Shown piece by piece: positions 20,260 through 61,002 of a DNA stretch of 64,000 nucleotides. Each line of letters starts with the position of its first letter. The first letter of the stretch is position 1. Both the position numbers and the translations under genes were made by a program. The stretch is from Psammoneis japonica (Eukaryota). Under the pieces are notes generated by a model, which saw only the letters and a list, made by a program, of their open reading frames with translations, made no database searches and had not been told where the DNA came from. The DNA lies in assembly GCA_008632985.1 (NCBI GenBank), contig QPGO01000086.1, positions 248,001 through 312,000 on the forward strand, given 5' to 3'.

Positions 20260-21290
20260 TGATGGCTCTTGTTTGAATGGTGGGGCATCAGACAATCAAA
20301 CTTGGCAAGATTGCTGACACTGGCCAGTGCCCCACCTGCCCCCAATGGTGCAATGTCCCAAACTGATTCACTGGGAAAAGATTTGCTGCAGTGTTGGCAG
20401 CATTGCTGCATGGGTCAAGATGCAAAGTGCAAAGATGGAGCTCAGAAAGGTTCGCAGTGTGCCCAACGGTGATTTTGCAGCAGGGTTGCAGCAAAAATGC
20501 ACCAGGGACATCAAGACCTTGGCAGGCGGATGACTGGGGTGTGGACAAAAAAACACAAAAAGACGCTGATCAAGTGTGCGGAGTGGCTTCTTGCGAGCAA
20601 TCTTAAATCTGCTCAAAGGGACAAACAATCGCCAGAGCAGTGTGCCAACATGCTGATGTCACAAGAAAACCTGCAGGCTGCAGCAAGGCTTGTCATGGCT
20701 GAGTGCAAAAAAGGTGGAAAACTTGCGCTGGATGATGTTGATGAAAAAACAAACAAACCAGTCTTTGATGCGCTGCATTTGAAACATCCTGATTTGAGGG
20801 TTCTGGAAGAAGATCATTTTTGCATGTTTGGCAAATTGCCTGAGTTGTGGACATCATCATCACAGAGGCAGTGCGATCAAAACAGCTGCAAGAAAACAGC
20901 CAGGGAGTGTGAGTCTTTGGATGTCGGATGCCAGCTGGCATCAGAACAACTTCTTCATTGCAGAAAGGCCTGTGCATTGCTTGAAGGGGTGCCACGCACC
21001 ATGTTCCGCTGGGTCAGCAACGGGTCTCCCACTCAGACAGCCTGTTGGGCATTGGCAGCAAAGAGGCTTCTTGGGTGCCAAACAAAAATCTGGGAATCCA
21101 TCCAGTCAGCAGCACAAAAGAGGTCTGGCTGTGTGCTGTTGTCAAAGCCATTCTCTTTGTTGCTGGATCAGAAGCCAAAGAAAGAAGTGTGCAACATGGG
21201 TCAGCTTTTGCCAGCCTGGACAAAGCCAGCATTGCAGGCAGTGCTCATGCTGTGAATGTGCTCTGGGAGCAAGTGACACATGTTTGAAAA
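20260..21290 (+). mobile_element. CRE-like non-LTR retrotransposon RT N-terminal remnant, frameshifted and TpA-depleted
   Basis: Across frames: RWSSERFAV.PTVILQ, KGG.L..DDVDEKTNKPVFDAL..KHP, ARK.PGS, SNGSP....ALAAKRLLG, GIHPV...EVWL.AVVKAIL.VAGSEAK, AG..HAV..LWE. Confidence 0.7.
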
Positions 21291-21604
21291 GTGCCACAAC
21301 TTTCCATTTGTTGCTGCCTCCAATGGATTCCATGAGCTGAGCAGGATTCTGATGCTGCACAATGTGAGTCACATTTGACCATCTGAGGCAAAGTTTGCTT
21401 TCAATTGCTGTGAGCATTGGTTGACCCCAATTGTCTGCAGTCACTTCAGCAGGGTGTCCTTGCCAGGCCTGTGCAGCAAGGAAGGAGTTGCTCAAGGTGA
21501 TTCACATGGCAAGACAGTCTTCTGCAGATTGGGAGTTCTTCTGCTGGTTTGCAAAATGAGTGCTTGATTTCCCAATGCATGCACACCTTGCCACACTGAC
21601 AACT

Positions 21605-21629
21605 CAGCAGCAGCAGCAGCAGCAGCAGG
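21605..21629. repeat. (CAG)n microsatellite at the edge of a TpA-depleted block
   Basis: About eight CAG units directly visible. Confidence 0.9.
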
Positions 21630-21634
21630 GAAAT

Positions 21635-24082: not shown

Positions 24083-25448
24083 CGAACTCAGCGTTTTTGC
24101 TTGTTCTTTTTTACGACGGAACAAACCGAACAGCTCATTGTTGCCTTGTAAAAAGAGATATATTCTCACGAACGTACCGATAAGCAGGGACTCGACAAGA
24201 AATTCAAAATTAGCGCTGCCATGCAAGAGTGATATAACCGCGATCTCACCATTGACGGTGATGCGAATTCCGCACCAATAGCGGGCGCTGTCTTGTTCAC
24301 CTCTCCAAACGTTGCAAAGGTTCAACGCGGGTGACAGCAGCTTTTGACAACGCGACACAAAGCGTCAGTACCGTCGGCGGAACACCCCAGTATATCAAGT
24401 ACTTATTCAATTTCCTCGCAAACAACTCCATAGCCTAAGCGAGAGGACCTTCATTGCTTTTATCAGCATTATTTTTTGGAGGTAATTGCCACAGCAAACG
24501 ACCTGATCAATCGATATAGGGAACTGCCATCAACTGACGAGACAAGAGTGTCTTGGATACGTTTCATGACATGCTTTTATGGGATCGATGACAGGTGATT
24601 GTGACGGAGACACAAAGCGCCACAGCAACACCTCTCAGCTCGGCAGAGTCCAAATCAAATTCGATGAAAGCACTGCACGATGTTCAGCGTGCAGATTTCA
24701 GAAGAACTGTGTAGACGGCAGGGCCCTGCTTCTCTAGTAGAGAGTAGACTCCCTCTCTAGAGCTAGCAGCAAGAGAGTAGAGACAAGACAGAAGACACTT
24801 CTAGAGTCTCAATTAGTGGCTTGCGTTGCCGCATCCATCCTCCATCCTCCATGCCATCGCATACGGTACGGTATAGATAGACTACATCTTCGGCATGGGA
24901 TTCGCCATCTCGGTCGTCTGCTCCTCAGTCTGCTCCTCATCCACCCCCAGCCACATTCACGTAGAATTCTACTCAGTTTTGTACCAGATCATATCTTTTG
25001 CTGAGAAAAAATGAGAAGGGAGGCTGGCGCGAGTGAGGTCATTTTCCAAATTCGCAGTTGTTAAGTACAATTTTGGCGGGAAAGGAGAGATTTATGCCCT
25101 ACAGTCATTTTTCAAGTGAATGTCCGACCAGCATTGCCCCATGTTTTCGAACACCATTTTTTAAGGATCGAGAGCCTCACGCACGCCGACTCACGACCAA
25201 ACGCAGGTGCGGAGAAAAGACTTTTTCACGAAATACAAAATACCGCTGGGACTCATCAAAGCCACGTAACAAACAAGGAAAGACTAGCGTGAGCGTCACA
25301 GCAGCAAAAGGATTTACCCCGATAACTCTCTCCTGAGGAATTACGAAGTTTCGAGTACCGCAGTCACCACCTCGACCCGACTCTCCAGCTCCCACCCTGA
25401 TTCTTGAAACGAAGAAACACTGGAAGTTGTAAACAGATTGGACTTATT

Positions 25449-26480
25449 ATGCATTTGTACCAGTATCTACCTGGAAAGTTCAAGGTGGATAAGGCGGAGC
25501 CACCACAGAAGATTGATACACTGGACCACACGACAACAAAAAATGCGGCGACCTCATCAGTCCTGACTCCACGTGAGAAGAATGTTGAGAAGACTGTTGA
25601 AGTCAAACCACACACCACCGGCGCTCTAAACCCAACATCTAAGGCGGAGGCAGAAAAGTTCAAGAAGTTGCTGGACACGAGACCACAAAAGAAAGCGCCT
25701 CCAAAGCATAAAGACAGCATGCCCACAACTCTTGATTTTTCTGAATCGACTGTCGTCTCCGAGGTAACAACCCCAACAGTACTGACATGTCCCAAGATCG
25801 GTCCTGGGTACTCGGATTGCTTGTCAGTCACATCGGATTTGACAACTCCGACCGTCATGCCCGGTGGGTCGCCCTTTGGACGACAACCACAGCATCAGCA
25901 GCAAACGAGTATGCTGGAAATGCCCAAACAGGTTCGGGAGCCTCAGATGCGAAGCCGTTCGGAGGTATTATTTAACTCGTCGAAGTTTTTGGAACGGGCC
26001 CAAAGTGCTCCACCAGCCAAGCGCCGTGCCAGTGCCAACGACACTCGACCAATCAGAGATGGTACGAAGCCAAAACGCGAAAAACAGCGACGATCGTCAA
26101 CCGAGAAACGTTCCCGCTCGCACAAAAAGAAGAAGAAGAAGACCGAAAAATCTCCCAAGCCGGACAGAGACTTGACAGATCGGTTGGCAAAGCTGCGAAT
26201 GAAATCAATTCGGGCACCACCAAAAGGCAAAGGGAACTCCATGGTGTCTTCTGCCCCTTCAAGGCTAGACATGGGATCAAGTGGCATGAACATCAACGGT
26301 GTTTCGGGCTCTGATGCGTCGTCGCCGGGGCGAGCTGCTTCCAAAAAGATGGAGGAGATCTTGTTGGCAACAGTTCAGCAATTGATGGACACGGAATACA
26401 AAGGAGACTTTGAGGAAGAGCCCCCCAGAAATAGACGACAGTGCCGGAGTTCATCGCCCAAAAGGAAAGCCAGACATTGA
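25449..26480 (+). CDS. Hypothetical basic, S/T/K/R-rich low-complexity protein
   Basis: Long ORF with normal composition and a poly-K NLS-like stretch; no domain recognised. Confidence 0.65.
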   Translation: MHLYQYLPGKFKVDKAEPPQKIDTLDHTTTKNAATSSVLTPREKNVEKTVEVKPHTTGALNPTSKAEAEKFKKLLDTRPQKKAPPKHKDSMPTTLDFSESTVVSEVTTPTVLTCPKIGPGYSDCLSVTSDLTTPTVMPGGSPFGRQPQHQQQTSMLEMPKQVREPQMRSRSEVLFNSSKFLERAQSAPPAKRRASANDTRPIRDGTKPKREKQRRSSTEKRSRSHKKKKKKTEKSPKPDRDLTDRLAKLRMKSIRAPPKGKGNSMVSSAPSRLDMGSSGMNINGVSGSDASSPGRAASKKMEEILLATVQQLMDTEYKGDFEEEPPRNRRQCRSSSPKRKARH

Positions 26481-28159: not shown

Positions 28160-28639
28160 TGTTTGGTCATGTGGGTGAAATTGTTTCTTTATAGCAAATG
28201 AAGTGGTACGAAGCTTTGGTGCTCTGCTTCAAACTGCAGAAGCATTTTCATTTAATGTCTCGCAGTGTCTTAACTTTTGAAGGCTCGGAGATCATCGCCC
28301 TGCCAGAGTGGAGACATTGGCAACGTGACCAACAATCAAACACCCACCTCGTTCTCACTTCTCGCCATGTATCACGTGTCGATACGATTGCTAGACAATC
28401 ATACAGTAGGGACGGACAACGTCTTGAAGTTGAAGAGGTGTCACGCTGATAGAATTTGAAGATTATCACGCGAAACCGCAATCTCATTTTTTCAGTCGTG
28501 GATGCGCTCACGCGCGCAAACAGAACCAGTGCCATGGCATTTTATTTGACGACCCATTTGAGACTGTCAAAGGTTCGTCATCATGCCTCGGAGTGCATGG
28601 CAAGGAAAGTGTCATTACAAGAAAGAAGCACGCGTCAGA

Positions 28640-30180
28640 TTTTCTCCGAAAACAACTGAACAAATCACAACAAGTTTCTGTGTTCATCACAAGGCCACAA
28701 CTCTGCCTTGGTTTCACAGCCACACCCCCCCCTGCGTGTTTTTCTGCACAAGCTCTGGCGCAGATGTCGCTTTTCTCTGACGGTGCAACGACGGTTCTTA
28801 CCTGCCTGTTCAGACATGTTCTTTTATTGACATGCCTTTGTTCTGTGATCATTGGCAATCTTGTGCAGTGGAAAACGATTGGCATCAAGCCCCCTTTCAG
28901 CTTGTTTGCTCGGCACTCTTCTCAGCATTTTTCATTTTCAGTGTGAGTTGGTGGTCAATTTTCACTTCTCCTTTCCTTCTCATGTTGAAGGCATTCCAGG
29001 CTGCCTGTTTTGCCTTTGCAGGCAGACCCGATCCCAGGAAGATGGCCTGATCAAAGCATTGAGCACTTTCCTTTTGAAGCCCCGCTGTGGCTGCTGGCCC
29101 TGTTTTTGTTGTTGTCAGCTGTTTCTGGTGGGCACCACAGCTTTGTGGCATCAATCTCGACTGGCTGATTGTCATGAGCCCCTGCTGCATCGCATGATGT
29201 GCTGGGGGTGTGGGTTGGCTTGTTGCCGGAGTTGCAGGGCGGAAGCATGGCAGCACTTTAAATGCGCAGAGTTTGGGTTTTGGTTTGTGCTCATCACAAG
29301 GCCAGTTGTCCATTTGGTTCCAACCAAGAAACTGTTAGCTCAAATGGAGAAGATTGCATGCTGATGATCAAAGCAGCACAAAGCAGGTGCAAATGGATGC
29401 CACAAGAATTCTGAGCACAGCAAGGATGTTTTGAGTGGACAGGCAGCTTCGCTCCATCTGCGCCAGTTTCTCTCAGTGCTGTGACACCCATTTGCCTGAC
29501 ATGATGGAGTTGATTCTTTGCAATTTCAGCCAGTGTGAGTGGCAGCCTGCAACATGTGCAGGGATTTCTTTCAACTTGCATCAGGTGCTCTTGACGCTGA
29601 ACAATGCAGCAACAGGCCTCCCTGCCATGCCAACAAATGTCCATGGCAGAAGGACTCAAGTGACAAATCTCGGAAGAAAGTGGACAACATGGCCATCATG
29701 TGCATTAGCCCTCCTCATGTTGCTGCAGCAAGACAAGATTTGAGGTCAGTTTTCATGACAAGAATCTGCACTGGGTGTGAGGGAAAAAGCAAGTGTCGCT
29801 CACAAGCACTGCAATGAAAAGGAGTGACAAGCAGCTTTGTTGGCTGAGAACTGTTCAGACTGTGCACACACACACAATGGATGCCAAGAGAAAGCATGAT
29901 GCAAATCATTGCCATCCCCATTGGCTGCACTCTGTGCTTCTTGAAGTGCAGCTGCATGGACAGTGGAAAGCTAGAAAGGATGGGAGACTGGACACTTCTG
30001 GACAAGAATGAGGACTTTGGTGTCATTTGGCACTGGAAAGTGTCGCTTTGTTCAATTTGAGGAATGGGAGGGGAGTTGCAATGTTGCCATTGACTCACAA
30101 ACAGAAAGAATCTTGCAGCAAGGTTTGGCGTGCAATGGCAAAAGCCACGAAGAACTGGAAAATAAAGAGCAGTCACTGGA
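28640..30180. repeat. TpA-depleted decayed repeat block, family not identified
   Basis: Only a handful of TA dinucleotides in ~1.5 kb; overlapping Tyr-free Cys/His-rich ORFs in all frames. Confidence 0.65.
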
Positions 30181-30997
30181 TGAGATTAGAAGAGGTTAGA
30201 GTTGTTTTGAATAGAAAGCAGGGAAAAGCATTCACAAGTCGAAGCATGCTCGACACAGTTTCGCTGCGTGCCAATGTAAAGGTGTCTTGATTGCGGTCTT
30301 TCTTGGCGTCTTGCGACTCCCTGCAACGCTGTGTTTTGAGGGCACGAAATTAAAACACGTGTTGCTATTCGACTTTGTTCGAAAGCCACATTTCGTCGAA
30401 AATAAACATATAGCATCAGCCTGATATCGACAATCGCGCGTTGCAACAAGAGACCACTTGAGCGTGTAGAGTCTAGGTTGGCAGTGGGGTAGAACGCAAA
30501 CATCTGGCCCCATCTAGTGATGGATAATGTATTTCATCGGCACAGGGAATTAAGAGAACAGCATGGCAGTGCCTCCAATGCAAAGGCGTCCTTGAGATAT
30601 AAAGTACAGAGTCTAGTAACTTCTCCGTTCTCTAACTTTCAGAATACGACAAATACGGTCATCTGGCGTTTGTATCGCAGTTGGCGCGATTCTCGTTCAC
30701 TGTCATTTTAGGGATACAGCACATCTGTGCTGTGCACTGTGCACTCACGTAGAATCAGTACTGGCGCCTACAGAGCATACTATAGACCGAAGTACACGTC
30801 ACGCGTGGTCGTGGGTAGTCGTGGTATTGATCGTACCTGGTCGTACTTGTAGTCGTAGAAAAGCAACGGAGGCACTGCCGCTCACCAGAATTGAGAGTCG
30901 CTCGTCGAAACGCGAACGAGTGAAGCACGGCGCGATACCACTGTAGACAATGATGAACAACGCTATGTATTTCTATGTATTGGTAAGTCCTGTCCTC

Positions 30998-35153: not shown

Positions 35154-38058
35154 ATGGCGTTCACGTTGTTCATCACGAACAGTCCAGCGGAGCCAGAATC
35201 AAGCCGCCACTTTAGGACAGGTGCTAAGAGCTGCATTCAATGTTAACAGCTTGCTTCAAATGATGAAGTGCTCTCGTTTTCTTTCATTCTTTCCATTTGT
35301 GTTGCAGTTCTTTGCGCTTCTCTTTGCAATTTCACCTGATGCGAGTGGCACAACGACATCCCAGAAAATGTTTTCAACTCGCATCAAATTCTATCGATGT
35401 GTTGAACAACACAGTTGTCGAACATCTGGTGGAACTGTCAATCCAATGTGCTCAACAAAAATGCGTGTCAGAGATCTGTGCGGACTTGAATGTTCTCTCC
35501 CCCGAGAACAAACATCATGAAAATCAGGACCATCACAAAACTGATGCACAGAAGAGGAGGACATCACCGATGAAACTTTCTGCCTCATCATTGAAATGAA
35601 ACAATGGCTGTCAAGATCAGGACGGTCATCATGACAAAATCACTGACTCGATCGTGCGAGAGCCAATGTCCAACTTCCTCCGGGTTGGGGTCAAACGTTG
35701 CTTGCTCTGGAGACACTTGCAAGATTGACTGAGGAAGGAGCAGATCCCAATCAATCAAGAGTTCAGTCTGTGGTTTACACAACACTGAAACTCATCTTGG
35801 TTGATCAAGTGCTGGGTGCTTCTTGGATGATTCTGGGCTTCTCGCCGACACTCGTCATTCAAGATTGATTGCATCCAGCAAGATGAGCCGAGCCGAGGCT
35901 TGCACTGCATCAGTTGACAAGATTGAAACATTTCTCTTGTCTGATGAGGGCAAGCTGAGTTTCATTGCCTGCACTTGCAACTCACTGCCAAGGATTGGCA
36001 AGGTGCTTGAAGCAATTGGAGGCAGCATTTCCTCTGGCATTTTTGATGAAGCACAAAAGATGGAAGGAGCAGGAAGGCCATTTGGATGCGACTCCTCATT
36101 GGCACACACAGGCTCCAAAACAAATCACTGTTTTGGGATCCAAGCTTGACAAGTGCGGCGCACAAACACTCTTGCTGAAAGGGGGAGCAAGCGCCACTCG
36201 TTGTCTCTCGGGCATTCAGAGCTTTGTCAATGAAGATCTGTTTGGTCCATGTGTCAAACAACGGACGTCAGGAGAAAGCATGGAGCAAAACATTGCGGCT
36301 CCAATGACGCTGTGTGTTTTGGACAGAAGCGAACTTCATGCTGCAACAGGCAACAATGTCAACAAGGAAGGGGCCTTCTTTCTGCCCTTTGCCATCCAAG
36401 CATCTTTCCATGAGCTCAATGTGAGCCATGCTGTCATGTTTCACTCTGCCAATGCTTGAGCACAGGCTTTTGCAGATTTGGCTAGATTTTTGATGAAGGA
36501 CCATGTTTCCACATTTGTCGTTTGTGGTGGCACAAAGATGTCTTCTGCAAAATGCGAACAAACATTGCAAGAGGCAAGACGTGCATCAAAATCAGTTGTT
36601 GCCAACTGCAAAGTCCTGGCAACAGGTGTCGACAAGGTGGATTGGGACTTGGTGGCAATTGCGGATCCTGTCCGAAGCTCCGTTCTCGCACATCAAATGA
36701 TTGGACGCATCAGCCGGAAAGCATTTGGCAAGCAATGCGGTTGCGTCCTTGTTCCCATCCCAGTTGCTGCTGATGATGAATTGTCTGAGGATGCTTGTGG
36801 ATGCAAACTGTTTGCGCTTGCTTTTGAGGCCATGGTTGGCCTGGATCCTGAGTTGCATCAGGACGTCTTGTTTGTGATTGAAGAAAGCAGCAGACTCGTT
36901 GGAAGGCCTTTGAAAGAGACAGAGCTCCCTTCTTGTGTGCTCGAGTCATTTGTGCTCCCCGATTCCATGTCATTTGAAATGAAGAATGACGCGATGAATT
37001 GCGTCATCCGAGATTGCAAAGACAAGAGTTCCTGGGAATGATGGGAGACAAATGTTTCACTTCTCAAACAATTTAAGAAGAGGGAAGGAAATTTGAGGAC
37101 ACCAAAGGGTCACAAAGAGGATGGAATGAATGTTTTCAATTGGTCAAAAGCTCAAAGGAGAGCCAAAAAGAAAGGCAAACTGGACGCTTCTCGACAGAAA
37201 CAACTTAAAAAGATTGGGGTGATGTGGGATGTTCACATGATGAGCAATGGGACGCTGTGTTTTCACTTCTCGAACAATTCAAGAAACGGGAGGGACATTG
37301 CAGGGCACCAACAACGGGTCACAAAGAGGATGGGATGAATCTCGGCAATTGGTTAAGAACCCGAAGGAAAGCCAAAAGGAATGGGGAACTGCTCGCTTTT
37401 TGACAGAAACAACTTGAAAAGATTGGGTTTATGTGGGACGTTCATGATGAGCAATGGGACTCTATGCTTTCACTTCTCGAACAAGTCAAAGATCGGAAGG
37501 GCCATTGCAGGGTACCAAGGGGTCACATGGAGGATGGGATGAATCTTGGAAAGTGGTTAGACACCCAAAGGAGAGCTAAAAAGAAAGGTGAACTGGACGC
37601 TTCTCGACAGAAACAAAAAGATTGGGGTGATGTGGGACGTTCGTGATGAGCAATGGGACGCCATGTTTTCACTCCTCGATCAATTCAAGAAACGGGAGGG
37701 CCATTGCAGGGTACGAAAGGGTCACAAAGAGGATGGAACGAATCTTGGGACTTGGGTAAAACAACAAAGGAAAGCTAAAAGGAAAGGTGAACTGGACGCT
37801 TCTTGACAGAAACGATTGGAGAAGATCAGGTTTATGTGGGACGTTTATGATGAGCAATGGGAAGCTATGATGTTGTCACTTCTCGAAAAATTCAAGAAAC
37901 GGGAGGGACATTGCAGGGTGCCACAGGGCCACAAAGAGGACGGGATGAATCTTGGAACTTGGTTGCAAACCCAACGGAAAGCTAAAAAGAAAGGGAAACT
38001 GGAGAACAGCCGCAAGGAGCGACTGGCAGATCTTGGCGTTGTTTTTGCAAAAAAGTAG
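35154..38058 (+). pseudogene. SF2 (ResIII-like) helicase + five helicase-associated (HA) repeats; stops and frameshifts; helicase half TpA-depleted
   Basis: QLPPGWG(K/Q)TLLAL (motif I), IFDEAQK (II), NCKVLATGVD (V), QMIGRISR (VI). Five ~200-bp repeats W..M.SLL..FK.REGHCRVP.GH.EDG.NLG.W...QR from ~37040. Confidence 0.85.
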
Positions 38059-38309: not shown

Positions 38310-39578
38310 TCACTTTCGGCGGGATGACAACACATGACTTCCAAGGCCCAAAAGAATGCCAGTGACCAATCCTACGCCAAACATGACATGTTCATTATCG
38401 ACACTCCTCTTCTTGCCGACGATTCCACCAGCCAAATACTTTTGTTCGTATAACGTTTTCGCTGCCTTGTGGACACCCCTCACTCCCAAATTTTCCGTCA
38501 GAACAGCAAACAGCGGCACTTTTTCTAGCAAGGGTTTCAAGCGGCTCTTGTTCATGTAGGCAATCATGAATTCCGTTTCCGAGCCGCGTATAAACTCCAT
38601 ATTTTTGGGAGTCAATCCTCCCGTCACAAACAAACCACCGGTGGGAATGAATTTAATGGCGGCATTACCACACTCTCCGCCGTATGCGGTCATCATGATT
38701 TTCATGGCTTGTCGAAACAAGGAATCTCCGCTGGTATGGGCATTGACTCCAACCACTGCACCCTGTTCGTCACCGGCATAAAGGAATTCCTGATGTATAT
38801 CTGTTTGAATCATTTCAGGATTGGTATGAGCCAAGAATTCGTACACACTCGCCAAGCCCTTGCCGGATACCACCCGTTCTAACGAGACGCGGTTCTTGCC
38901 ACCGTGTTTGTCCATGAGGTACTTCCACAATTCGACTTCGTGGTCATTGTGCGGCGCGTACTCGACGTGTCCACCCTCACTGGCAAAGCATTGATACAGC
39001 GAGTCGTCGTCGGGATACGGCGTTAAGTAACACTCGCCCAATCCCGTACCAGCACCGACACAGACTTTGGGTCCCTTGAGATGTTGCAAATTCTCCAACG
39101 CGTTGGGCGGTCCGTAGAGTAATTCGACTTCATCTTGATGTAACGTGAGACAACCGTATCCCTGGGCCACGAAATCATTAATAACTTCACAAAGCACAAT
39201 GCGGTTTAGATAGGGGTCACTCTGTTCGTTTTGAATCAACGAACCATCCACCAGCAAGTTCCCTAAGTTCGTCATGTTCACGCGATTGTCTTGTACGAAT
39301 CCTGCTGTTGCCAAACAGACCACAATATCGGAATTATCCAAATCATCTAGGTCCTCGATGGAAGTCCAGCAGTACTGTAAGAACGGTGCCACAATGCGCT
39401 TGGAAAAGGCCGTTGGTTCTGTACGGATTTCTTCCGGAATATCAATCTCGTTGCGGTACTTTTTGAATGCTAGAGGTTTATCGGAATCGCAAGGTGAATT
39501 CGCCGCATACAACGACATGCGAGAATTCGTCCCACCAATATCACCCGTCAACAAATACACTGATTTCTTCTTTCTCAT
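38310..39578 (-). CDS. glk: Glucokinase (bacterial-type Glk family) with C-terminal hydrophobic tail
   Basis: Motifs GDIGGTNSR, INDFVAQGYG, GAGTGLGE, SEGGH, VSLERVVSGKGL and GGLFVTGG. Confidence 0.9.
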   Translation of the reverse strand: MRKKKSVYLLTGDIGGTNSRMSLYAANSPCDSDKPLAFKKYRNEIDIPEEIRTEPTAFSKRIVAPFLQYCWTSIEDLDDLDNSDIVVCLATAGFVQDNRVNMTNLGNLLVDGSLIQNEQSDPYLNRIVLCEVINDFVAQGYGCLTLHQDEVELLYGPPNALENLQHLKGPKVCVGAGTGLGECYLTPYPDDDSLYQCFASEGGHVEYAPHNDHEVELWKYLMDKHGGKNRVSLERVVSGKGLASVYEFLAHTNPEMIQTDIHQEFLYAGDEQGAVVGVNAHTSGDSLFRQAMKIMMTAYGGECGNAAIKFIPTGGLFVTGGLTPKNMEFIRGSETEFMIAYMNKSRLKPLLEKVPLFAVLTENLGVRGVHKAAKTLYEQKYLAGGIVGKKRSVDNEHVMFGVGLVTGILLGLGSHVLSSRRK

Positions 39579-39959
39579 GATGGATGGATGCTTCACAACA
39601 ACAATGAGCAAACGGTGAAGTGTGAGAGGTGAGACACCATGGGCGGCGGCACATTATCCCCAGCGTTCGGAGATAATTTTATACCAGCAAATTACGTAGA
39701 AATCTACAAAAATTGTCCGTAGTACATTTCTAAGTAATTTTTCTCGTAACGACCGACGCGACCTCTGTCTCCCCCCCAGACTTTTTCGCACAAATCAAGC
39801 CATTTCGAAAAAAAAAAAAAAAAACACATAAAAATGGTGGCTGGATTGCGTTCAAGTTTGTGCAGTTTTTGTGCGACGCTCTGTTTGAGAGGATAACCAG
39901 GTCTTCCGGGACAATTTTTGGGTTTTTCTTTGCTCCAGTGGTGAGAGTCAAATTTCCTG

Positions 39960-41710
39960 CCGTGTGTCATCTGTTTTGGTGTGTTTGTTGATGCAGGGTT
40001 GTTTGTCAACAAAAGTTGGCACTCGCTCTTCCAGTGATGTTTGTTTGAGCATCAAGAGCTTTTGGCTCCTTGTTGCACCAGCACAATGCCAGCATTTTGA
40101 GCCAGCTTGAGACAACCAAAAGCACCTTGAAAAGGCAAAAGATGCAGTGGATGCAAAAGTCAAGTGTGCCGGCACACCCCCACTTGTGAGCATGCTGGCA
40201 TTTCTGAGACTGGGTCCATTGAGAGTGTCCTGCACTGCAATGCCATGCACCCTTGCCCACCAAACACAGCACAAAGCAGATTGCCAGCAACTGGCCTTGC
40301 TCCCCACAGCACAAAATGAGTTGCCGGCAACTTGCTGCTTTCAGCAAGCACAAACTTGCCCCCCTCAGCACAAGGTGGGTTGCCAGCAACCTGCTGCCTG
40401 CACTGCAGCAAGTGCTTGTGGCAGAACTGACACAATTTGCTGTGCTCATTTCATTGGCTGTTTGACAAACACCATGCACAGCAGCACCATTTTTCTCTGT
40501 CATTTGCAACAAACCTTGCCTCTCAGAGAACTCTCTTGAGGGCCATGCTGATGAGCTGTGTTCACTTTGCTGTTCCCCCCTGGGATCTTCTGCCAGTGGT
40601 GACAACACGGCTGCACCAAAAATTTGGCCTTGCTCGAACAAGGAGAGCTGACAAGTGAGATTCATGTGAAGTGTGCTTGTCTGTCATGCAGCGGAAGATG
40701 ACCTTGGCATGCTGCATGTTCCAGCCTCAATGTGGGCTCTCTGCATGACACAGGCTCACAGAACTGGTGTGTGCAAGAAGCTCTGCAGCTGATGTGGTGG
40801 GCAATGGGCACGCTTGTCCTTGACATCTGAACAAACAACCACTTTGCAGCACCGCCACACTTTTTCACACTCAAAATGTTTGAAAGCATCTGCTTTTGCC
40901 AGCAGCGCAGCACCCCACAGACATTGAACACTCTTTGCATTGGAAAATTCCAAAAGTTGCTGAATGGATGACCCAATGATTGAGCCCCAAAAGCTGGGTG
41001 CAAAATTCACCCAAACTTGCTCAGAGACATGCAAGCACAGCATGTGGCACACATGATCAAAACACATTCATGTCACAGCCTGGTGCTGCAATGCCCCACC
41101 TGGAACTGAAGTGCCTCCCTTGTGAAGCTTCAATGGAAAGCCAAAATGCCAGCATCTTGTGGCTTCAAAATGCAGTGCACACAAACAGGAGGCCAGAGGC
41201 AGCACTGGTCTGTGGCACAGAAAACAATGTCAAGATTCTGACTGACATCCAAGATGGAGAGCGCACACTCCCTCATGTCACACAGACTGGCACAGATGTG
41301 CTGGAGAGATCCAATCATCTCTGCTTTGACATCCCCAGCTTTTTTTTCTTCTCCAGTGCATGATTGTTGCCATCTGTCCCAGACGTTGTTAGATTGTCCC
41401 AATGCCAGCAGTCCGCAAGGTTCCACAAGAGAAAATCTGACAATGACCAAAATGAGACTGTGGGCTTGCTTCTTGGCTCACAAAACAATGGAGAGCAGCA
41501 GCAGCAGGCTGCTGCAAAAGAGGGCGTGGTGTTTGCAAGGTCCCGCCACCTGGGTGCCTCAGGCCTGTGAGAGCCAGAAAAGTCAACAAGCACCGGGAAA
41601 AACTCCCTGCAAACTGGCAACTGTGATGACATGAACACTGGGGCAAGAAAGAGTGAGCAGATCTTGGATGGAGACCTGCTGAGCTGTCCAAACTTGTGGC
41701 ACCCATCGCC
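39960..41710. repeat. TpA-depleted decayed repeat block into which the gypsy element inserted (continues ~44970..46110)
   Basis: Near-total absence of TA; Tyr-free overlapping ORFs; family not identified. Confidence 0.65.
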
Positions 41711-41714
41711 CATT

Positions 41715-42146
41715 TGCAGCATGCCTCGCTGCTGGACAACACGGCGAGACCGTGCATGAGCCTCTTGCACGTGGCAACGCAGCATTGTCAACACGCACCT
41801 GGGAAGCACGACCACAGGAGGGCGTGGCTCTGGGTCTCAGGCAATTCCAGAAGGATGCCAAGAGAGCATCCGTGTGAAGCACACTGGCCCGTCATCTGGC
41901 CCACGATGGCAGCGTGATTCCACACGATGACATCACTCATGCATGGCACGTGATGGCTTGATTCGCACGATCCACAATGCGAACGCACGATCGATTTGAT
42001 GTGATCCAAATGCGAACAAATGGGGATTTGGCAAGATTCCCTGTTCGCACGATCCCATTTTCTCTGCTCTAAACTGGCTCACAATTTTCACAACGACAAA
42101 GTCGCAACACATCTTCTTTTTCAGCGCCTGGTGCACACACAGGGCA
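41715..42146 (+). repeat. 5' LTR (432 bp), TpA-mutated
   Basis: Aligns end to end with 44526..44961 apart from a 4-bp indel and transition-dominated changes. Confidence 0.92.
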
Positions 42147-42240
42147 CAGCAATGTCACTCCCGCATGTTGTGCGAGGTGACGAAATCTGCAGAAACGAAA
42201 CTGCGAAATGTTGGCAGGACCGACAAATCTTAAAACGACC

Positions 42241-43283
42241 ATGAAGAAGCGGACTGAGCCACCGATTCCGTTCGCACGGCCGGAGAAGAAAGAGCTGCAG
42301 CAGGGCGAGTGCCAGACATTCAAGCTGCGTGACAACCCCACTGATCCGGATGGTCCAACACACGAGATGGGCATTCCGCACCTTTCCACGGCTGCATGCG
42401 AGACACTCCTGATCTTTCTGCGCAACGTGGATCGCGTGCATGAAGGACAAAACATCACGACCGGGCCAGTGAAATTTGCCCTCATGCGTGACCTGCCACA
42501 GGGCGATGCTCTGACGTCATTTGACAATGCCGCTGACAAGCAGGCATCCCAACCAATGCCACATGCGCAGCATGCGTCGCGAAGCTAAAGGAAAGTGTCT
42601 TCCCACACAGGGCGGCACTGTTGCAGAAGCGTCATCTGAGGCGCTTCATGCGCAAGCCCGCAGAGGTTTCCACTTGTGACTGCGTTGCAAGGGCTGTTGA
42701 AATTAACGGCTGCATCTCTCAGTTTCCACCTGTGATGGAGGATGGAGAAGCACCGGCACCATTGCCCAACGACGAACTGCGCAACATGTTCGAGTGCGGT
42801 GTGCCGAGCGCATGGCAGAAGTTCATGACGCTGCAGAATTTTGACCCGTTGGCGCATGCTGTCACCGAATTTGTGCAGTTCTGCGAGCGCATCGAGCAGG
42901 TCGAGCTTGCCGAAAGCAACCTGGACCAACACACTGAGGTTCCACGCAAGCGGGGACGTAGAACGGACAATCCTGAGTCGTTGATCACGACCCAACGGAG
43001 CACCCAGAAGTCGTGTGTGCTGCACGGGACTGACTGTGGACATCATGCGGAGGATTGCCGTCAGCTCAAGCACCACGTGAAACGTGTCAAGACTGGACAT
43101 TCCAACAACGGAGGCAGCAAACCTGATGCAAAACCTCGGAATGAGGAAGACATTGATGCTCTCATCGGATCGAAGGTCGAGGAGTTCTTTGCCAACGCTC
43201 AGAAAAAGTGCAAGGCACGCGAGGAGGAGCTTGATCACTTCCGCGACCTCAGCTTGAGTGACTCCAAAGATTCGGACACCTGA
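42241..43283 (+). pseudogene. gypsy gag, frameshifted, Tyr-free
   Basis: KLRDNPTDPDGPTHEM, QKRHLRRFMRKP, LPNDELRNMFECGVP..W, C.LHG...HHAEDC zinc knuckle. Confidence 0.8.
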
Positions 43284-43319
43284 GAAGGGGGCCGACACGA
43301 CACAGGTGGTTTTGGTGCA

Positions 43320-44486
43320 TTGGATGAATGCACAAATGAACAACTGAATCACCATCGTACACGTGTTGTGGGCCAACCCCGCAAACGAGTTAAAAAGACT
43401 CATCTCACTCCAATCTTGTTCATAGCTGTGAATGCCAAACATGGCAAGGGCAAGACTCAAACCATTAAGGCACTGCTAGATAGTGGCGCCAGCAGTGCTC
43501 TACTCGACAGTCGACACTGTAAACGTCTGCGAAGCCATTCAACGGCTGAAACAAACTGTACTACGGTAGCAGGCTCGTTCAGTACGTCTAACGACTGTAC
43601 CGTTAAATTTCGGTTACCAGAATTATGCGAAACTGCAGAACTTAAACATACCGTCCACGTACACAACGGAAAGTTGGGCAAGTACGATATGATTATTGGA
43701 CGTGACATTCTGGAGACACAAGGCATTGATATTGTCTTCTCTAAACAGATGATAGAGTGGCCATTAGTCAATGGAGAAGTACCAATGAGGCACGTCGATG
43801 CTACGGTAGAAACCTCCTTCTATCTTCAAGATCCAGAAGCCTTATCTTCGGAAACCGACCGGATTTCGCGTATTTTAGACGCTAAGTACGCGCCGTGGCC
43901 AACCCAGGTGGTTTATGACCGTGGGACAGAATTTATGGCAGAATTTAGCCAGATGATTAAAAATGACTATGGGATTTTGAAGAAACCCATAAGTAAACGG
44001 AATCCACAGGCGAATGCCATAGTGGAACGTGTACACCAGACACTTGGTAACATGGTACGTTCCTTTTCAGTACAGGATATGGAACTGGACGAAGATGACC
44101 CATGGAGTGGCATCCTCTCCGCAGTAGCCTTCGCTATTAGAGCTACGGTACATACGACCACGCGTGCAAGTCCCATGCAATTGGTCTTCGGACGCGATGC
44201 GGTTTTATCTATTGCCTATCGTGCTAAGTGGAAGTACATAGAAACCAGAAAGCAGAAGCTTATCCACTTAAACAACAAGCGTGAAAATCAGAAACGCAAG
44301 GAGTATCAATATACCGTAGGGCAATTGGTACTTATCAAACAGGAACAATCCTCTAAATACGGTTCTGACAGCTATGCAGGACCCGCCAGAGTTGTCCGTG
44401 TATATGACAACGGCACGTTGCGTGTCCAGAACGGAGCGCTGATAGATACGTACAATCTACGGCAGATTGTACCCTATCACCAGTAA
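43320..44486 (+). CDS. Deleted gypsy pol: aspartic protease fused in frame to the C-terminal half of integrase
   Basis: ALLDSGASS, YDMIIGRDIL, then ILDAKYAP joined directly to WPTQVVYDRGTEF; SPMQLVFGRD; GPA/GPY-like motif. Confidence 0.8.
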   Translation: MDECTNEQLNHHRTRVVGQPRKRVKKTHLTPILFIAVNAKHGKGKTQTIKALLDSGASSALLDSRHCKRLRSHSTAETNCTTVAGSFSTSNDCTVKFRLPELCETAELKHTVHVHNGKLGKYDMIIGRDILETQGIDIVFSKQMIEWPLVNGEVPMRHVDATVETSFYLQDPEALSSETDRISRILDAKYAPWPTQVVYDRGTEFMAEFSQMIKNDYGILKKPISKRNPQANAIVERVHQTLGNMVRSFSVQDMELDEDDPWSGILSAVAFAIRATVHTTTRASPMQLVFGRDAVLSIAYRAKWKYIETRKQKLIHLNNKRENQKRKEYQYTVGQLVLIKQEQSSKYGSDSYAGPARVVRVYDNGTLRVQNGALIDTYNLRQIVPYHQ

Positions 44487-44525
44487 GACATCCTGTCACT
44501 TAACGGCCCTGATCATGGGGGAGTG

Positions 44526-44961
44526 TGCAGTATGCCTCGCTACTGGACAACACGGCGAGACCGTGCATAAGCCTCTTGTACGTGGCAACGTAGTATTGTT
44601 AACACGTACCTGGGAAGCACGACCACAGGAGGGCGTGGCTCTAGGTCTTCGGCAATTCCAGAAGGATGCTAAGAGAGCATCCGTGCGTGTGAAGCACACT
44701 AGCCCGTCGTCTGGCCCACGATGGTAGCGTGATTCCACACGATGACATCACTCGTGCATAGCGCGTGATGGCTTGATTCGCACGATCCATAATGCGAACG
44801 CACGATCGATTTGATACGATCCAAATGCGAACGAATAGGGATTTGGCAAGATTCCCTATTCGCACGATCCCATTTTCTTTACTCTAAACTAGCTCATAAT
44901 TTTCACAACGACAAAGTCGTAACACATCTTCTTTTTCAGCGCCTGGTGCATACACAGGGCA
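44526..44961 (+). repeat. 3' LTR (436 bp), TpA retained
   Basis: Follows the PPT; contains 23 TA dinucleotides by hand count. Confidence 0.92.
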
Positions 44962-46117
44962 CATTGCCATGGTGTCTGCCAGGCTACAAACAGCAGACAT
45001 GGTCAAAATGACAAGCCCAACAGAAAAATGACACAGACAGAACACCAGACTGTTTGTCAAAAAGAATGTCTTGCTTTGCCTCTTGTTGTGTTCTTGCTTT
45101 GAGCTCTTGTTCTTGTGACAATGTCGTGCCAAGGTGGCTCAACAAAAATGTGAACAAATGACAGGTGTGCCAGCAGATGCAATGGATGCACTGCCACTCT
45201 GGCCACTGAGCTGGCTGCCAGAGAGTGCTGGAGAGTGCTGGCAAGTGGATGGCGGGGAGGCTTTGAGAGCAACAACAAGCACGCATGCATTGTGCAATCA
45301 TTGCCAACGGTGCTCACGTGAGTCATCAGGCATCACACGCCAACTCCTTTTCACTGGCCACCCGGGCAAGTGATGTCAAAGTTTTGTTTGTGAGCGAGTG
45401 AGTGACAGTGTCCAGGTCACAACAGGAGTTCACACGTGTGCAAGATGTGATGAGTTTGCATCGATTTTTACAAGAGTTGTCAGGAACTGACATGACAGTT
45501 TGTCACGGAGCATCCGGGCTGCAACAGGAATTCGCAGATCCTGCATGTGCAACACATGGCAAATTTACATTGATTTGACTGTCACACACAATGACTTGTT
45601 GCCCTTTTGCACATGAGCTGTGCAGCACACATGCATCTTAGACTGACGGTTGATTCACGTGACCTTGTTCTGACAGAGCCAGCCAGCCGGTGCTGCACAC
45701 CAACCCCTGTGGCATTCTGCATCACACACCAGAACTTTCAATTGTTTGCAGACACCGGTGTGTCATTGAAAATTGACAACCACTGATTTTTTGCTTGTGA
45801 CATGACCACAATGACACACTCTGTTGCACAAGTTTGGGCCCCACCCCGGAACAGTTGCCAAGCCATTTGGGCACAGCTGTGTCAACGAGATGCTTGTGGA
45901 ACACACACATCTCATTGGCTTGGCAATTCTTCATGGTTCGCAAATGAACAATGGCAAAGGTCTCATGTGTTGTTTCATTCATGCACTTGGCATCAATCCC
46001 AGTGGAAAACCTGCGCAGGCTTGCTCTGAGCTGCAAGCGCGCATGCATGCTGATGACCTTGTCCAGTCTTGCCATGGTCAGTGCCCCCCCTGAAGGGCTT
46101 GTTTTTCATGCACTGCC

Positions 46118-46825
46118 AGCTGCTTTAAATGTCACCACCTGCTTGCTCCACAACATGATGAGGGGCTTTTGTTTTCTTTTGGCATTTCTCTTTGTGTCAC
46201 AGTTCTTTGCTTCTTTGCAATTTCACCAAATGCAAGTGGCTCAACAACATCCCAGAGAGTGTTTTTAACTCACGTCAAATTCTGTTGATGTGTTGAACAA
46301 CACAGTTGTCAAACATCTTGTTGAACCATTTTTCCAAGGTGCTCAACAAAAATGCGCATCAAAGTTCTGTGTGGATGTGAATGTTCTCTCTCCCGTGAAT
46401 GAACACCATGAAAACCAGGGCCATCACAGAACTGATGCACACAAGAGGAGGACATCACCAATGAAGAAACGTTCTGCCTCATTGCTGAAACGAAACAATG
46501 GCTGTCAGGATCGGGATGATTGGCATGACAACATCACTGACTTGATCACACAGCATCAGGACAGAAACAGTGTGAGAGCCAATGTCCAACTTCCTCTGGG
46601 TTGGGGCAAAACATTGCTTGCTCTGGAGAGATGCTTGCAAGGTTGACCAAGGAAGGAGCAGGTCCCAATCAATCAAGAGTTCAGTCTGCAGTTTATGCAA
46701 CACTGAGGCTCACAATGGAAGACAAAATTTTCACTTCTTGAACAATTGAAAAAATGGGAGGGACATTGTGGGGTGCCATGGTGTCACAAGGAGGATGGGA
46801 CGAAACTTGGAAATTGGTCAGACAA
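46118..46825 (+). pseudogene. Second, internally deleted copy of the helicase-HA gene (5' region joined to one HA repeat)
   Basis: Aligns to ~35229..35794, then jumps to QWKTKFSLLEQLKKWEGHCGVPWCHKEDGTKLGNW. Confidence 0.85.
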
Positions 46826-47004
46826 GAGAGAGGAACAAAAGTTACGAGCGACGGTGTTCTTACATCATTATTTCTGACGACCGGTCAAAATGCTAATAAC
46901 ACATGGCTAGCTTCAAGTCGTTATTAAACCAATCTTTCATCATCTCTCCACATAGGACGCGACGACGTTCCTAGTAAAAAGGACTGGAGGTGCCAGAAGT
47001 TTCA

Positions 47005-57644: not shown

Positions 57645-58059
57645 TGATGGTCCCAAAGCTACCTGTATTCCTACATTATTTTCGTAATACACATGATGTT
57701 TGATATATGGGAGTCATCTCTAGCTAGCTATTGGCAGAGCTCTGTCTAGCTATTAGTGCTAGATAGTAAGAGCCAGCAGAGAATACTGTAGAAGAAGGGC
57801 ACTGTATGCGCCAGCTCGCGACAAAGCAATGTCAAGCATAATTCTTATTTTACATTCTCACATCCAGGGATGTCATCAGTCTTTTTTTCATAGAAAGGGG
57901 GTTTTGCGCGGTTATGAACATGGAAACGAACATGGAATTGAGTTATTGCGCGCGTAAGTGTTCGAGGTAATCTGCGCACGGAATTTGAATCGCATCTGGC
58001 GCCAACTCGGTCGTCTCATGGGGACATCGTAGCCAGTTCGCTAATGTTGAATGTGGTCT

Positions 58060-59983
58060 TGAGTCAGCTTGATGACAGCATCTCGTACAGGCCATGACGG
58101 CATGTGCATTGCTTTGGCGCTGGCACAAAGACAGACCGGCACACCACCATCTTCCCAACCTGGGCGTCTGGAGCTGATCTTTGAAGAAGGAATCCATGAT
58201 CTTCTCAAGCAAAGATGTGTTGCTCTAATGACAGCAATGCTTTCATGCTTTAGAGTCTGGTCTCTGCCATTTGTCAGATGTCTTTTTGAGACATCTGGCA
58301 CAGGACAGCACGCGCTTCCTTGCCATTCAGGCCATCGCATGACACCACAATGGGCAAGAAGTGACGGCGTTGCTCAAGGCATGGCTTGAGATGCTTGCAC
58401 TTGTTCTCCTTTTTGTGGTCCAGTGGGACTTGTCATGAGGTCTTGGAAGCACAAGAGGGTGGTGCATCCATGTTGGCTGCTCTGACATTTGTGTGACCAG
58501 GGCTGCACTTTTGTCCCACAACCCTCCAACTGAACAAGAAAGATTTCCACGGTTGCCATCTCTGGAGTTGTTGCCAACAGCAACTTGGCTCAACAGGCCA
58601 TTGGGTTCACTGTTGGCTGTTGGGCTTCTGACCAGCAGGGTTGACAAGAGGTTGGTCAAACAGACAGCTGGTCTGCCCTTCTTGTGCTGAAGGGCAGCAG
58701 CATGCTGCATGGAGAAATTGCAGTTGCATCCACCACAAGCCTCTTCAGCAAGTCAGAGGGGCTCTTTGCCACAATGCAGAAAAAGGCAGTTTTGAAATTG
58801 TTGACATGAAAGTTTGGTGCCGTTCAGTGTGGATGGGCACGCTGATGGCCAAGCACCAGCTTTGGTGCTGTGCCTTGCTGTGTGGGATTTGAGAGTGTCT
58901 TCATCATGCTTTGTGGCTTTTCCTGTTGGCAACTGCCATGCTTTCACCTTGTGTGCATTGCGTCCTTGTGAACTGCTGTGCTGGTGAATTGCATGCACGG
59001 CCGGCTGTGGAGCAAATGATCAATCTGCAATCATGTGGGAGCACGCATGAGAGTGCTTGCTCCTTCAAAGCTCTGCTTTGCAGAGCAGGAAAACAAATGG
59101 GATCATGTGCTGGAAGCACTGTAAAAAAGACCAGTTTTGGCTGCAAGGAGGGTGCCTTTCAGCTTTCTCGTGTGTCTGTGATGCACTGTGATGCAACACA
59201 CCAGAAGTGGCTGTGGAGCACATCGCAGCACATCATGTGTCTGCAACACACATTCCAAAATCACCGCATGCAGTGCATCGCTGCATTGAGTGGTCTAACG
59301 TCATCATCGACTCATGTGTTTTTCTGGTGCAGCATGTTGCAACATTCCACAGGGTGGTTAAACTCCTCATGATGAACAATTTCCCAGTCATCAGTGGGAA
59401 GTGTTGTTTCATCAAAAAACCATTGCTTCAAAACCATCACAATCAATGTGAGCATCTTGTGCAACTCTGCTGTCACATGCATCAAGAGCACTGAGGAAGT
59501 GGCAAAAGAGCTCACCCTGCTCCTCAAGCACACCTTGAGAAAATGGTGGAGTGTGACAAGCTGCCTTGCATTGACAAAAGCAGCACGACTCAGGCAGCAC
59601 CCACAAGCAATTAAAAGAGAGAAAGGGCTTCTGGGAATGACAGGACTTGTGCTTCAATTCAGAGAAGGGGAACTGACAAAGCATTTTTGGATGGAGTGAT
59701 TGTGCCAAGTTGCCCAAAGCATGCTCCAGTGCCCCCAGGCACTGAAAAGCCTCGCATTGAACCAGGCACCATTGAAAGAAGCTGAAGTGACAAGTGCAGT
59801 GAAAGAGTCCATGATTTCTTCTGACTTGGGTGCTGTTTTTGTCTGCCCAGAAATCTTCAACAGCAGAGAGCTGATGCTGATGCTGCCCCACCAAAGGGCG
59901 GCAGCTTCAGCGGTGGAGGCTGGGTGCAAACAATGGTCAAGTGCCCCCAGCACAGTGCGCCATTGCATCTTTCAGGGTGCACC
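58060..59983. repeat. TpA-depleted decayed repeat block, family not identified
   Basis: Very few TA dinucleotides; Tyr-free overlapping ORFs. Confidence 0.65.
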
Positions 59984-60910
59984 TGAGTTTTGGTGTTGTG
60001 CAGATCACAGACTGAACTCTTGATTGGTTGGGACCTGCTCCTTCCTCAGTCAATCTTGCAAGCATCTCCAGAGCAAGCAATGTTTTACCCCACCAACCTG
60101 GAGGAAGTTGGACATTGGCTCTCGCATTGTTTCTGTCGCAGTGCTGCTGCACGATCGAGTCAGTGATGTTGTCATGATGACCATCCCAATCTTGATGGCC
60201 ATTGTTTCATTTCAGTGATGAGGCAGAACGTTTCATCGGTTGTGTCCTCCTCTTCTGTGTGTCAGTTTTGTGATGGTCCTGGTTTTCATGGTGTGTTCAT
60301 TCACGGGGGAGAGAACATTCACGTCCACACAGATCTTTGACGCACATTTTCGTTGAGCATCTGGGATTGACGGTTCAAAGAGACATTTGACGACTGTGTC
60401 GTTCAACACATCGATGGAATTACCACCTTCTTCTTATGAAGAAATCCCACTCAACCATCTTCAATGTTTTTTCACATGTGTGGCCGAAGGGCGGTGTTGA
60501 GAAAGGAAAAAGATTCGTGGCGTCACCTGAAGAGATTGGCAGCAGCCATGGGAGACACCATGCACCTGTTGGACATTGGAAGGATGACATCTGTGAGAGC
60601 TGTCTTGGTTGCTATGACGACAATTACGAATGTCATTGGTGCCTCTACAACATTCTCTGGGATGTTGTTGCGCCACTCACACTGGTGGGTGAAATTGCAA
60701 AGAAGCAAAGAACTGCAACACAAACAGAAAGACTAAAAGAAAACGAGAGCATCTCATCATGTGAAGTAAGCTGGTAACATTGAACGCAGCTCTTACCACC
60801 TGTCCTAAAGTGGCGGCTTGATTCTGGCTCCGCTGGACTGTTCGTGAGATGAACAACGTGAACACCATTGGATTGCGGCGATGATCTCATCTCATCATCA
60901 TCCGTGCGAT
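59984..60910 (-). pseudogene. Third, 3'-truncated copy of the helicase-HA gene 5' region (inverted), with ~220 bp of extra sequence
   Basis: Reverse complement matches ~35113..35794, including acgaacagtccagcggagccagaatcaagccgccactttaggacaggtg and RANVQLPPGW.GKTLLALE. Confidence 0.88.
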
Positions 60911-61002
60911 CGATCCGCGATCCGCGATCCGCGCGCATATATGACGCACCACACACCATGGCGTTGCGGCGCGGATCGAGTTACAGTACCGGATTTCACA
61001 CG

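Follow-up and report, generated by a model that had tools for sequence, protein, structure and literature searches.

The 64-kb stretch of DNA analyzed here (the window, meaning the whole of that stretch) carries a Ty3/gypsy-type retrotransposon at positions 41715–44963, the two long terminal repeats (LTRs) of which differ mainly at TpA dinucleotides. We consider it likely that a mutator acting on TpA at the DNA level operates in this genome, or did so recently, and that it is the same kind of process as that reported for the alga Bigelowiella natans (Mettrop et al., bioRxiv 10.64898/2026.01.13.699255). We would class the window as a further case of TpA hypermutation, probably from a diatom, in which transposons and repeats are the targets and the loss of TpA has reached saturation.

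The LTRs were located by a direct-repeat search of the window and then aligned pairwise. The 5' LTR, found in an edited state (41715–42148, forward strand, 434 nt), contains 1 TA, 56 CA, 37 TG, and 27 CG dinucleotides, and the unedited 3' LTR (44526–44963, forward strand, 438 nt) contains 23 TA, 39 CA, 27 TG, and 34 CG. Their alignment has 34 differing columns, comprising 30 substitutions and one 4-bp indel (44682–44685). Twenty-two of the 23 TA of the 3' LTR read CA (12) or TG (10) in the 5' LTR, five CG of the 3' LTR face CA or TG in the 5' LTR (with no site showing the reverse), and the three remaining substitutions lie at 41838, 41839, and 42064. An earlier note on this DNA, made from the sequence alone, had given the same counts (23 TA, of which 12 became CA, 10 became TG, and 1 was kept; 5 CG changes; 3 others; a 4-bp indel), and realignment reproduced them exactly. 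The binomial probability that at least 22 of 30 substitutions fall at TA is ∼1e-19, and TA sites changed far more often than CG sites (22/23 vs. 5/34, Fisher p = 8e-10). The near-saturation and TpA specificity claimed in the earlier note are likewise upheld, given that 22/23 TA sites but at most 2 of ∼172 other A/T positions of the LTR have changed. The LTR has lost 96% of its TA against a divergence of only 3/434 outside TA and CpG sites. Once polarized by outgroups (see below), 22 of the 30 substitutions are A→G or T→C at TpA, and the GC content of the edited LTR is 0.54 as compared with 0.50 in the unedited one.

The depletion of TpA extends far beyond the LTR pair. The window-wide observed/expected ratio (o/e) of TA is 0.47 and is distributed in blocks, with six clear TA-poor tracts (15145–21691, 28465–30187, 35226–37430, 39748–43357, 44964–46861, and 58087–60613) that together hold 60 TA in 18.5 kb (3.2/kb) as opposed to 43.9/kb in the remaining window. 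The composition of the tracts is characterized by CA and TG o/e of ∼1.6–1.9 and CG o/e of 0.14–0.58, and the longest TA-free gap measures 1496 bp, whereas none of 200 block shuffles gave a gap longer than 173 bp. Seven long gene open reading frames (ORFs) in the window have TA o/e of 0.43–0.57 and CG o/e of 0.81–1.10.

The retrotransposon is itself divided between the two states. The 5' LTR and the adjoining edited internal part encoding gag (42149–43357, forward strand) together have a TA o/e of 0.06 and a CG o/e of 0.91 (41715–43357), and the edited internal part contains no Tyr codon, a 1-bp frameshift near 42550, and an in-frame TGA at 43281–43283. The unedited internal part (43358–44525, forward strand), which encodes an aspartic protease (DSG) fused in frame to an integrase core, and the 3' LTR together have a TA o/e of 0.96 (43358–44963). 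The switch from edited to unedited falls within 43309–43357, the last edit shown being at 43308 (TG in the window and TA in other copies) and the first retained TA at 43358.

Direction of Change

Two sequences alone cannot give the direction of a change, and outgroups are needed. Tyr codons always contain TA. We placed 150 phmmer homologs on the element by tblastn and scored the codons at which at least 50% of the homologs have Tyr. All seven such codons in the edited half now read CAY (His, four) or TGY (Cys, three), and five of the six codons of majority Tyr in the TA-normal half are still TAY. Other copies of the family are represented by Logan contigs from three public runs of one sample and study. 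At 16 of the 40 variant sites listed (out of 413), these contigs show TA where the window has TG (11) or CA (5), and TA is often the majority letter in the other copies (65% at 43017, 68% at 43032, and 84% at 43233).

More distant relatives point the same way. The 80 best of 418 confirmed metagenome relatives have TA o/e of 0.65–1.17 and TA-free gaps of at most 208 bp; this sample is biased towards intact copies, so that it tells us that TA-rich sequence is normal without implying that no editing occurs in other places. All 120 of 120 Pol relatives contain 2.95–4.5% Tyr. CpG decay, the direction of which is known, is polarized alike, all five CpG differences between the LTRs being losses in the 5' LTR, and a reading frame of 400 codons, with protease and integrase still recognizable, remains open in the 3' half. 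The Tyr codons, the TA of other copies, the TA-normal relatives, the polarity of CpG decay, and the intact 3' frame support TA→CA/TG in the 5' half as the direction of change, in agreement with the proposal of the earlier note that the process is the inverse of fungal repeat-induced point mutation (RIP).

Among the 150 phmmer representatives, five (P0012, P0021, P0060, P0068, and P0128) are devoid of Tyr, the Tyr columns of the alignment being occupied by Cys or His (Cys at 4/4 in P0060, His at 2/2 in P0021, and Cys at 2/2 in P0012). These are integrase relatives belonging to other transposable element (TE) families and were drawn from JGI, ENA, and NCBI assemblies. In contrast to the element in the window, the individual copies may each favor one strand. 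Such proteins hint that the same trace may be present in other data sets.

Mechanism and Alternative Explanations

CA and TG products are intermixed over the length of the LTR (11 runs vs. 11.9 expected in a runs test), and none of the TA sites in the LTR alignment was turned into CG, the product of editing on both strands. This pattern fits an activity on either A of the palindromic TpA step, with the target lost after one hit. Action on both strands, as asserted in the earlier note, is borne out by the balance of 12 CA to 10 TG and by the occurrence of both His and Cys at former Tyr codons. The edited sequences also include a repeat family other than a retroelement, consisting of pseudogenes with helicase and helicase-associated (HA) domains (35226–38021). 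A repeat search within the window found copies at 35154–35794, 46118–46712, and 59984–60868 (inverted), which differ at 13 CA-versus-TG discordant sites, 6 CA/CG/TG sites, and 2 CA/TA/TG sites. As the outcomes at shared sites are discordant, the three copies must have been hit independently after their separation. Because both strands are hit in an interleaved fashion and non-retroelement repeats are hit as well, we infer that the process acts at the DNA level.

Two other candidates were tried and rejected. Kataegis-like, strand-coordinated editing was dismissed on the result of the runs test, and deamination of minus-strand cDNA during reverse transcription by reasoning, as its changes would be confined to one strand and would peak towards the 3' end.

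We propose that the mutator would convert A:T to G:C specifically at 5'-TpA-3' on either strand of the palindromic step, such that each TA would become TG or CA and would then no longer be a target. Its action would be confined to transposons, repeated pseudogenes, and unidentifiable CpG-depleted (presumably methylated and silent) DNA, where the rate would lie orders of magnitude above background until TA is nearly gone, sparing neighboring genes. Such a process would create no stop codons, as TAA and TAG are removed, and would destroy every Tyr codon. As for the chemistry, the likeliest candidate is a TadA/ADAT2-like deaminase that would be directed by chromatin state and would convert adenine in DNA to inosine.

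The targets in the window are the gypsy element, the helicase/HA pseudogenes, and unidentifiable CpG-poor DNA, the silence of which is presumed, and not the long gene ORFs. The earlier note had described the process as repeat-targeted, and this part of its reading is not supported by the data. The edited left flank of the element is single-copy at a likeness of at least 80%, and the unedited 3' half of the element is as repeated as the edited 5' half, which argues against a simple dependence on duplication. Single-copy silent viral DNA is also the main target in B. natans (10.64898/2026.01.13.699255).

The 3' neighbor of the edited base may hold a further clue. From 38 sites with a known TA ancestor and the seven Tyr codons we obtained 21 contests, in which the edited A precedes C more often than the opposite-strand A does (16 wins, 5 losses; one-sided p = 0.013, post hoc), and the trinucleotide gains of the tracts relative to background favor TGY over TGR. 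The natural target of TadA/ADAT in tRNA is U-A-C, and early adenine base editors retained a YAC preference. The preference for a 3' C may recall the UAC target of TadA, and we regard it as a lead, not a test.

Five A→G changes private to the window lie in the edited half at 42808, 43000, 43252, 43262 (C, where others have T), and 43315, positions at which all or nearly all of the listed contigs of other copies have A (T at 43262). They fall at ApA or GpA, four of the five in ApA context and three reading A-A-C, and may reflect a weaker secondary target of the same activity.

The LTR pair by itself gives no direction, which leaves room for the reverse reading, namely RIP-like mutation of CpA/TpG to TpA in the 3' half. 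We give this hardly any credence given that all seven former Tyr codons read His or Cys, that other copies carry TA, and that the TA content of the relatives is normal; moreover, the 3' half retains its 400-codon frame, whereas RIP creates stops, and the 5' LTR would need to have had 1 TA in 434 nt from birth. A-to-I editing of the element RNA by an ADAR- or ADAT-like enzyme, fixed by reverse transcription, would produce the same base change, and these enzyme families prefer a 5' U. However, only sense RNA would be copied, yielding TA→TG alone in place of the interleaved CA and TG found and of both His and Cys at former Tyr codons. The LTRs of a new copy should also be alike, and here they differ. 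Since the edits extend to the helicase/HA pseudogene copies and to unidentifiable DNA, RNA editing is a very unlikely source of the trace, and the earlier note was right to consider it inadequate. A route through T→C is a further candidate, as TpA is self-complementary and sequence cannot separate A→G from T→C. It would involve a thymine modification at TpA (5-hydroxymethyl- or 5-formyluracil, introduced by a TET/JBP-type enzyme) that mispairs with G. In its favor, dinoflagellate DNA carries 5-hydroxymethyluracil preferentially at TpA and TpC, and 5-formyluracil promotes A:T→G:C mutations. We know of no such thymine modification in diatoms, and the 3'-C preference would become a G-T-A preference without known precedent, making this route improbable in our view. 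The B. natans authors, for their part, favor deamination of adenine (10.64898/2026.01.13.699255).

The contrast between the LTRs, as distinct from the process behind it, has two explanations that we hold to be about equally likely: the border of the targeted domain may lie within the element, or an edited and an unedited copy may have been joined by recombination or gene conversion. Were 41715–44963 a join of an edited 5' part and an unedited 3' part, to which we assign slightly less than an even chance, the TpA process would still be real, but this LTR pair would not date it. A join is favored by the missing target-site duplication (CCATT at 41710–41714 vs. TTGCC at 44964–44968), by the switch of state within 49 bp inside the element, and by a family of hundreds of copy-equivalents with many deletion variants, which offers ample recombination partners. 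Both flanks are old TA-free DNA, and an unedited 3' half between them is easier to explain as a later arrival. However, the LTRs differ at just 3/434 positions besides TA and CpG sites, and the 5-bp flanks differ at 5/5 positions exclusively by transitions, which may be chance or the remains of a genuine but heavily decayed duplication. A domain border inside the element is also allowed by the region-limited hypermutation with sharp limits seen in B. natans (10.64898/2026.01.13.699255). The earlier note had used the LTR pair as an insertion clock, and of this the contrast itself stands and the secure dating does not: without a target-site duplication and with a sharp internal switch the clock is weak, and the two LTRs may derive from two joined copies. 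An artefact of assembly, polishing, or base calling, for example modified bases miscalled in long reads, might be suspected because the stretch comes from the runs of one study, of unrecorded library type, and the repeat interior is covered by short contigs only. We judge this to be extremely improbable, as a 4878-nt Logan contig of depth 62 reproduces a gene and the TA-free left flank (39500–41742) with three other letters and four gaps, and other contigs reproduce 44934–46603 with one to two other letters. K-mer contigs of such length presumably stem from accurate reads, and the five Tyr-free relatives among 150, with Cys or His at Tyr columns, come from other public assemblies.

Several points weigh against a DNA-level TpA mutator as we propose it. 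The evidence is a sequence trace, and neither an enzyme nor a modification nor a de novo event was seen here. In the old tracts CpG decay gives the same CA and TG products, and the two processes are inseparable there. Judging by the contigs at the listed sites, the majority of gypsy-family copies seem to have escaped editing at many positions, so that targeting is not simply of any repeat. The preference for a 3' C comes from 21 contests only and was chosen after looking at the data. No listed contig bridges the junction at 43309–43357, and the 3' half may contain a mosaic produced by repeat polishing; in addition, the stretch was found in the runs of one study only, perhaps the assembly's own data. 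Finally, the assignment to diatoms comes from a DUF6824 match, Atlas clusters scoring 0.82–0.84, and intronless genes, and not from a phylogeny.

Comparison with Known Systems and Significance

The closest parallel is B. natans, in which integrated viral DNA undergoes TpA→TpG/CpA hypermutation de novo (Mettrop et al., bioRxiv 10.64898/2026.01.13.699255). Two integrated viral regions received 231 of the 302 new single-nucleotide mutations recorded in mutation-accumulation lines; almost all of these 231 were A→G/T→C, all were at TpA, and they arose at ∼1000 times the background rate and in some lines only, for which the authors propose ADAT2-like adenine deamination. The process there acts mainly on inserted giant-virus and virophage DNA, which is present in single copy and has so far lost only part of its TpA (rho TpA 0.45), and the long-term trace consists of TpA-depleted, CpA+TpG-enriched clusters, with TE domains enriched among TpA-depleted genes. 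As the same signature has already been shown de novo in that alga, the process is not undescribed, as the earlier note had supposed. The cut-offs of the preprint (5% extremes in B. natans) are passed by 16 of the 64 1-kb segments of our window, with clusters at 15001–22000 and 58001–61000. A rate excess of ∼1000-fold accounts for a 96% loss of TA with 3/434 other changes, and no single burst is needed.

The two cases are alike in that A→G/T→C at TpA gives TpG/CpA and is confined to regions of foreign or silent DNA. They differ in their hosts, a chlorarachniophyte (Rhizaria) in the one case and in the other a genome with intron-poor genes including a diatom-type DUF6824 gene, and in their targets, which here are LTR retrotransposons, repeated pseudogenes, and unidentifiable DNA at near-zero TA. 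Moreover, the process was watched happening in B. natans, whereas here we have the trace alone.

With regard to the host, the genes of the window are intronless across whole Pfam domains (glucokinase, 1–312 of 314; CARME, 8–258 of 268), and chlorarachniophytes are intron-rich. One gene carries DUF6824 (Pfam, E = 3.5e-17), for which the Atlas clusters are dominated by Bacillariophyta at scores of 0.82–0.84, a lead only, and the nearest glucokinase clusters are oomycete and diatom. These features suggest a stramenopile host, probably a diatom, and not a chlorarachniophyte.

Fungal RIP resembles the present process in making dinucleotide-specific, near-saturating transitions in DNA with sharp limits, by which transposons and duplicated genes are hit and adjoining genes spared. 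However, RIP produces TpA from CpA/TpG, with a loss of GC and the appearance of stop codons, whereas the process here raises GC, makes no stops, and removes Tyr codons. Unlike RIP, the B. natans process acts on single-copy DNA in asexual lines (10.64898/2026.01.13.699255). Decay of 5-methylcytosine (5mC) at CpG co-occurs in the same tracts and has the same CA/TG products, but it affects CpG only and is much slower here (5/34 CpG vs. 22/23 TpA), the young edited half having a CG o/e of 0.91. ADAR, ADAT, and TadA-derived base editors share the conversion of A to I, read as G, and the preference for a 5' U/T, to which the weak TAC preference here may be compared; the natural enzymes act on RNA, whereas the trace here is in genomic DNA and on both strands. 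To our knowledge, adenine deamination in DNA is otherwise on record only for engineered TadA and in a report on amphioxus ADAT2 that the B. natans preprint cites. APOBEC3 provides an example of deaminase-driven hypermutation of retroelements as a defense, but it deaminates C to U on minus-strand cDNA and leaves strand-pure G→A in TC/CC contexts, so that base, context, and strand pattern all mismatch.

Our literature search found no report of TpA hypermutation in diatoms. Text look-ups in PMC2806351 and 10.1101/2025.10.24.684338 yielded no relevant passage, and passages of a Phaeodactylum mutation-accumulation study name CG, CC, and TG as mutable dinucleotides and do not mention TpA (PMC6604790).

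If the host is a diatom, a TpA mutator otherwise described once, in a 2026 preprint, would be no curiosity of one alga but present in a major group of marine primary producers, acting there on transposons to the point of saturation. This would explain the difficulty of annotating old diatom repeats and would bias GC content, dinucleotide content, and the dating of insertions by LTRs. It would also open another lineage, one amenable to genetics, to the search for the enzyme, and a natural DNA adenine deaminase would be of interest for genome editing. The replacement of Tyr by His or Cys, together with the absence of new stops, offers simple screens for other genomes and for protein databases. 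A broader reading, which we regard as rather doubtful, is that a natural deaminase of DNA adenine, guided by chromatin and specific for TpA or possibly TAC, forms an ancient arm of genome immunity in at least two lineages of SAR (stramenopiles, alveolates, and Rhizaria), namely Rhizaria and diatoms, and is a main force by which transposons are inactivated and eroded in diatoms. If this were true, saturation would leave old elements unrecognizable, as in the 6.5 kb of the window without a Pfam match, and whole genome tracts free of TA, and the enzyme would be a natural A→G editor of double-stranded DNA.

The Carrier Element and Other TA-Poor Tracts

The interior of the retrotransposon forms one frame (42537–44486, with the TGA at 43281) that encodes gag, the DSG protease and, directly thereafter, the integrase core. 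The N-terminus of gag lies in another frame at 42211–42558, as placed by tblastn of relatives, and contigs of other copies carry an extra A after 42550, in agreement with the frameshift. The element has LTRs with TG...CA ends, gag, a DSG protease, and an integrase core as the last domain before the 3' LTR. Pol relatives carry RVT_1, RNase H, an integrase zinc-binding domain, and rve, and residues ∼118–780 of a 1004-aa relative are missing at ∼43895 (tblastn), where loose contig ends at 43893/43895 agree. Judged by the domain set of its relatives and by the missing residues, the element is of Ty3/gypsy type and its reverse transcriptase and RNase H were deleted at ∼43893–43895.

The summed contig depth over the element is 15,000–40,000 as compared with ∼62 in the flanks, which puts the gypsy family at hundreds of copy-equivalents, and the contigs include many deletion variants. 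No RNA run is among those listed as carrying this stretch. The closest protein relatives have 68% identity at best in the near search and 74% at best with the integrase query, and a query with the edited gag gave no matches at E ≤ 1e-10 among 395 candidate proteins.

The element is flanked on its left by TA-free, CpG-poor DNA (39748–41714) that contains the 1496-bp gap, has a CG o/e of 0.1–0.2, and is single-copy in the run's contigs. The right flank (44964–46861) is likewise TA-poor and CpG-poor and carries the helicase/HA repeat copy at 46118–46712. The remaining tracts comprise 28465–30187 (9 TA, CG o/e 0.37), 58087–60613, which carries the third, inverted helicase/HA copy at 59984–60868, the largest tract at 15145–21691 (6547 bp, 14 TA, CG o/e 0.24, CA/TG o/e ∼1.75–1.79), and 35226–37430 (forward strand), which covers a pseudogene with Helicase_C and HA domains and in-frame TGA at 36457 and 37039.

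A Pfam scan of 16 + 103 ORFs and 24 read-through frames of the TA-poor tracts found, apart from sub-threshold matches, Helicase_C and HA in 35226–38021 only. The sub-threshold matches comprise HA in 44964–46862 (26.9 bits vs. a cut-off of 28.4) and three chance matches in the scan of ORFs and tract frames. No Pfam domain was found in 15145–21691 (six read-through frames), 28465–30187, or 58087–60613, nor in the ORFs of the left flank (39748–41714), the only part of that flank scanned.

The HA domains of the helicase/HA pseudogene are encoded in a tandem array at 37004–38020, made up of 4–5 copies of ∼200-nt units that are 62–84% alike. TA density rises gradually across this array from the TA-free helicase part to normal levels, up to ∼38020, making it the only soft tract border that we noticed in the window.

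In 15145–21691 practically the only stops are TGA, and long ORFs consequently occur in all six frames; such ORFs in edited tracts could be mis-annotated as genes. This tract is flanked by paralogous blocks (9752–11942 and 21775–24083) that are 70–76% identical and of normal TA content. Together with a small repeat (14922–15137 and 16207–16458), these blocks give the appearance of a segmental duplication with a degraded insertion between its halves. A further short segment, 25974–26432, has just three TA, but its CG and CA/TG contents are normal and it lies within a 359-codon ORF, so that its low TA probably reflects gene composition and falls outside the phenomenon described here.

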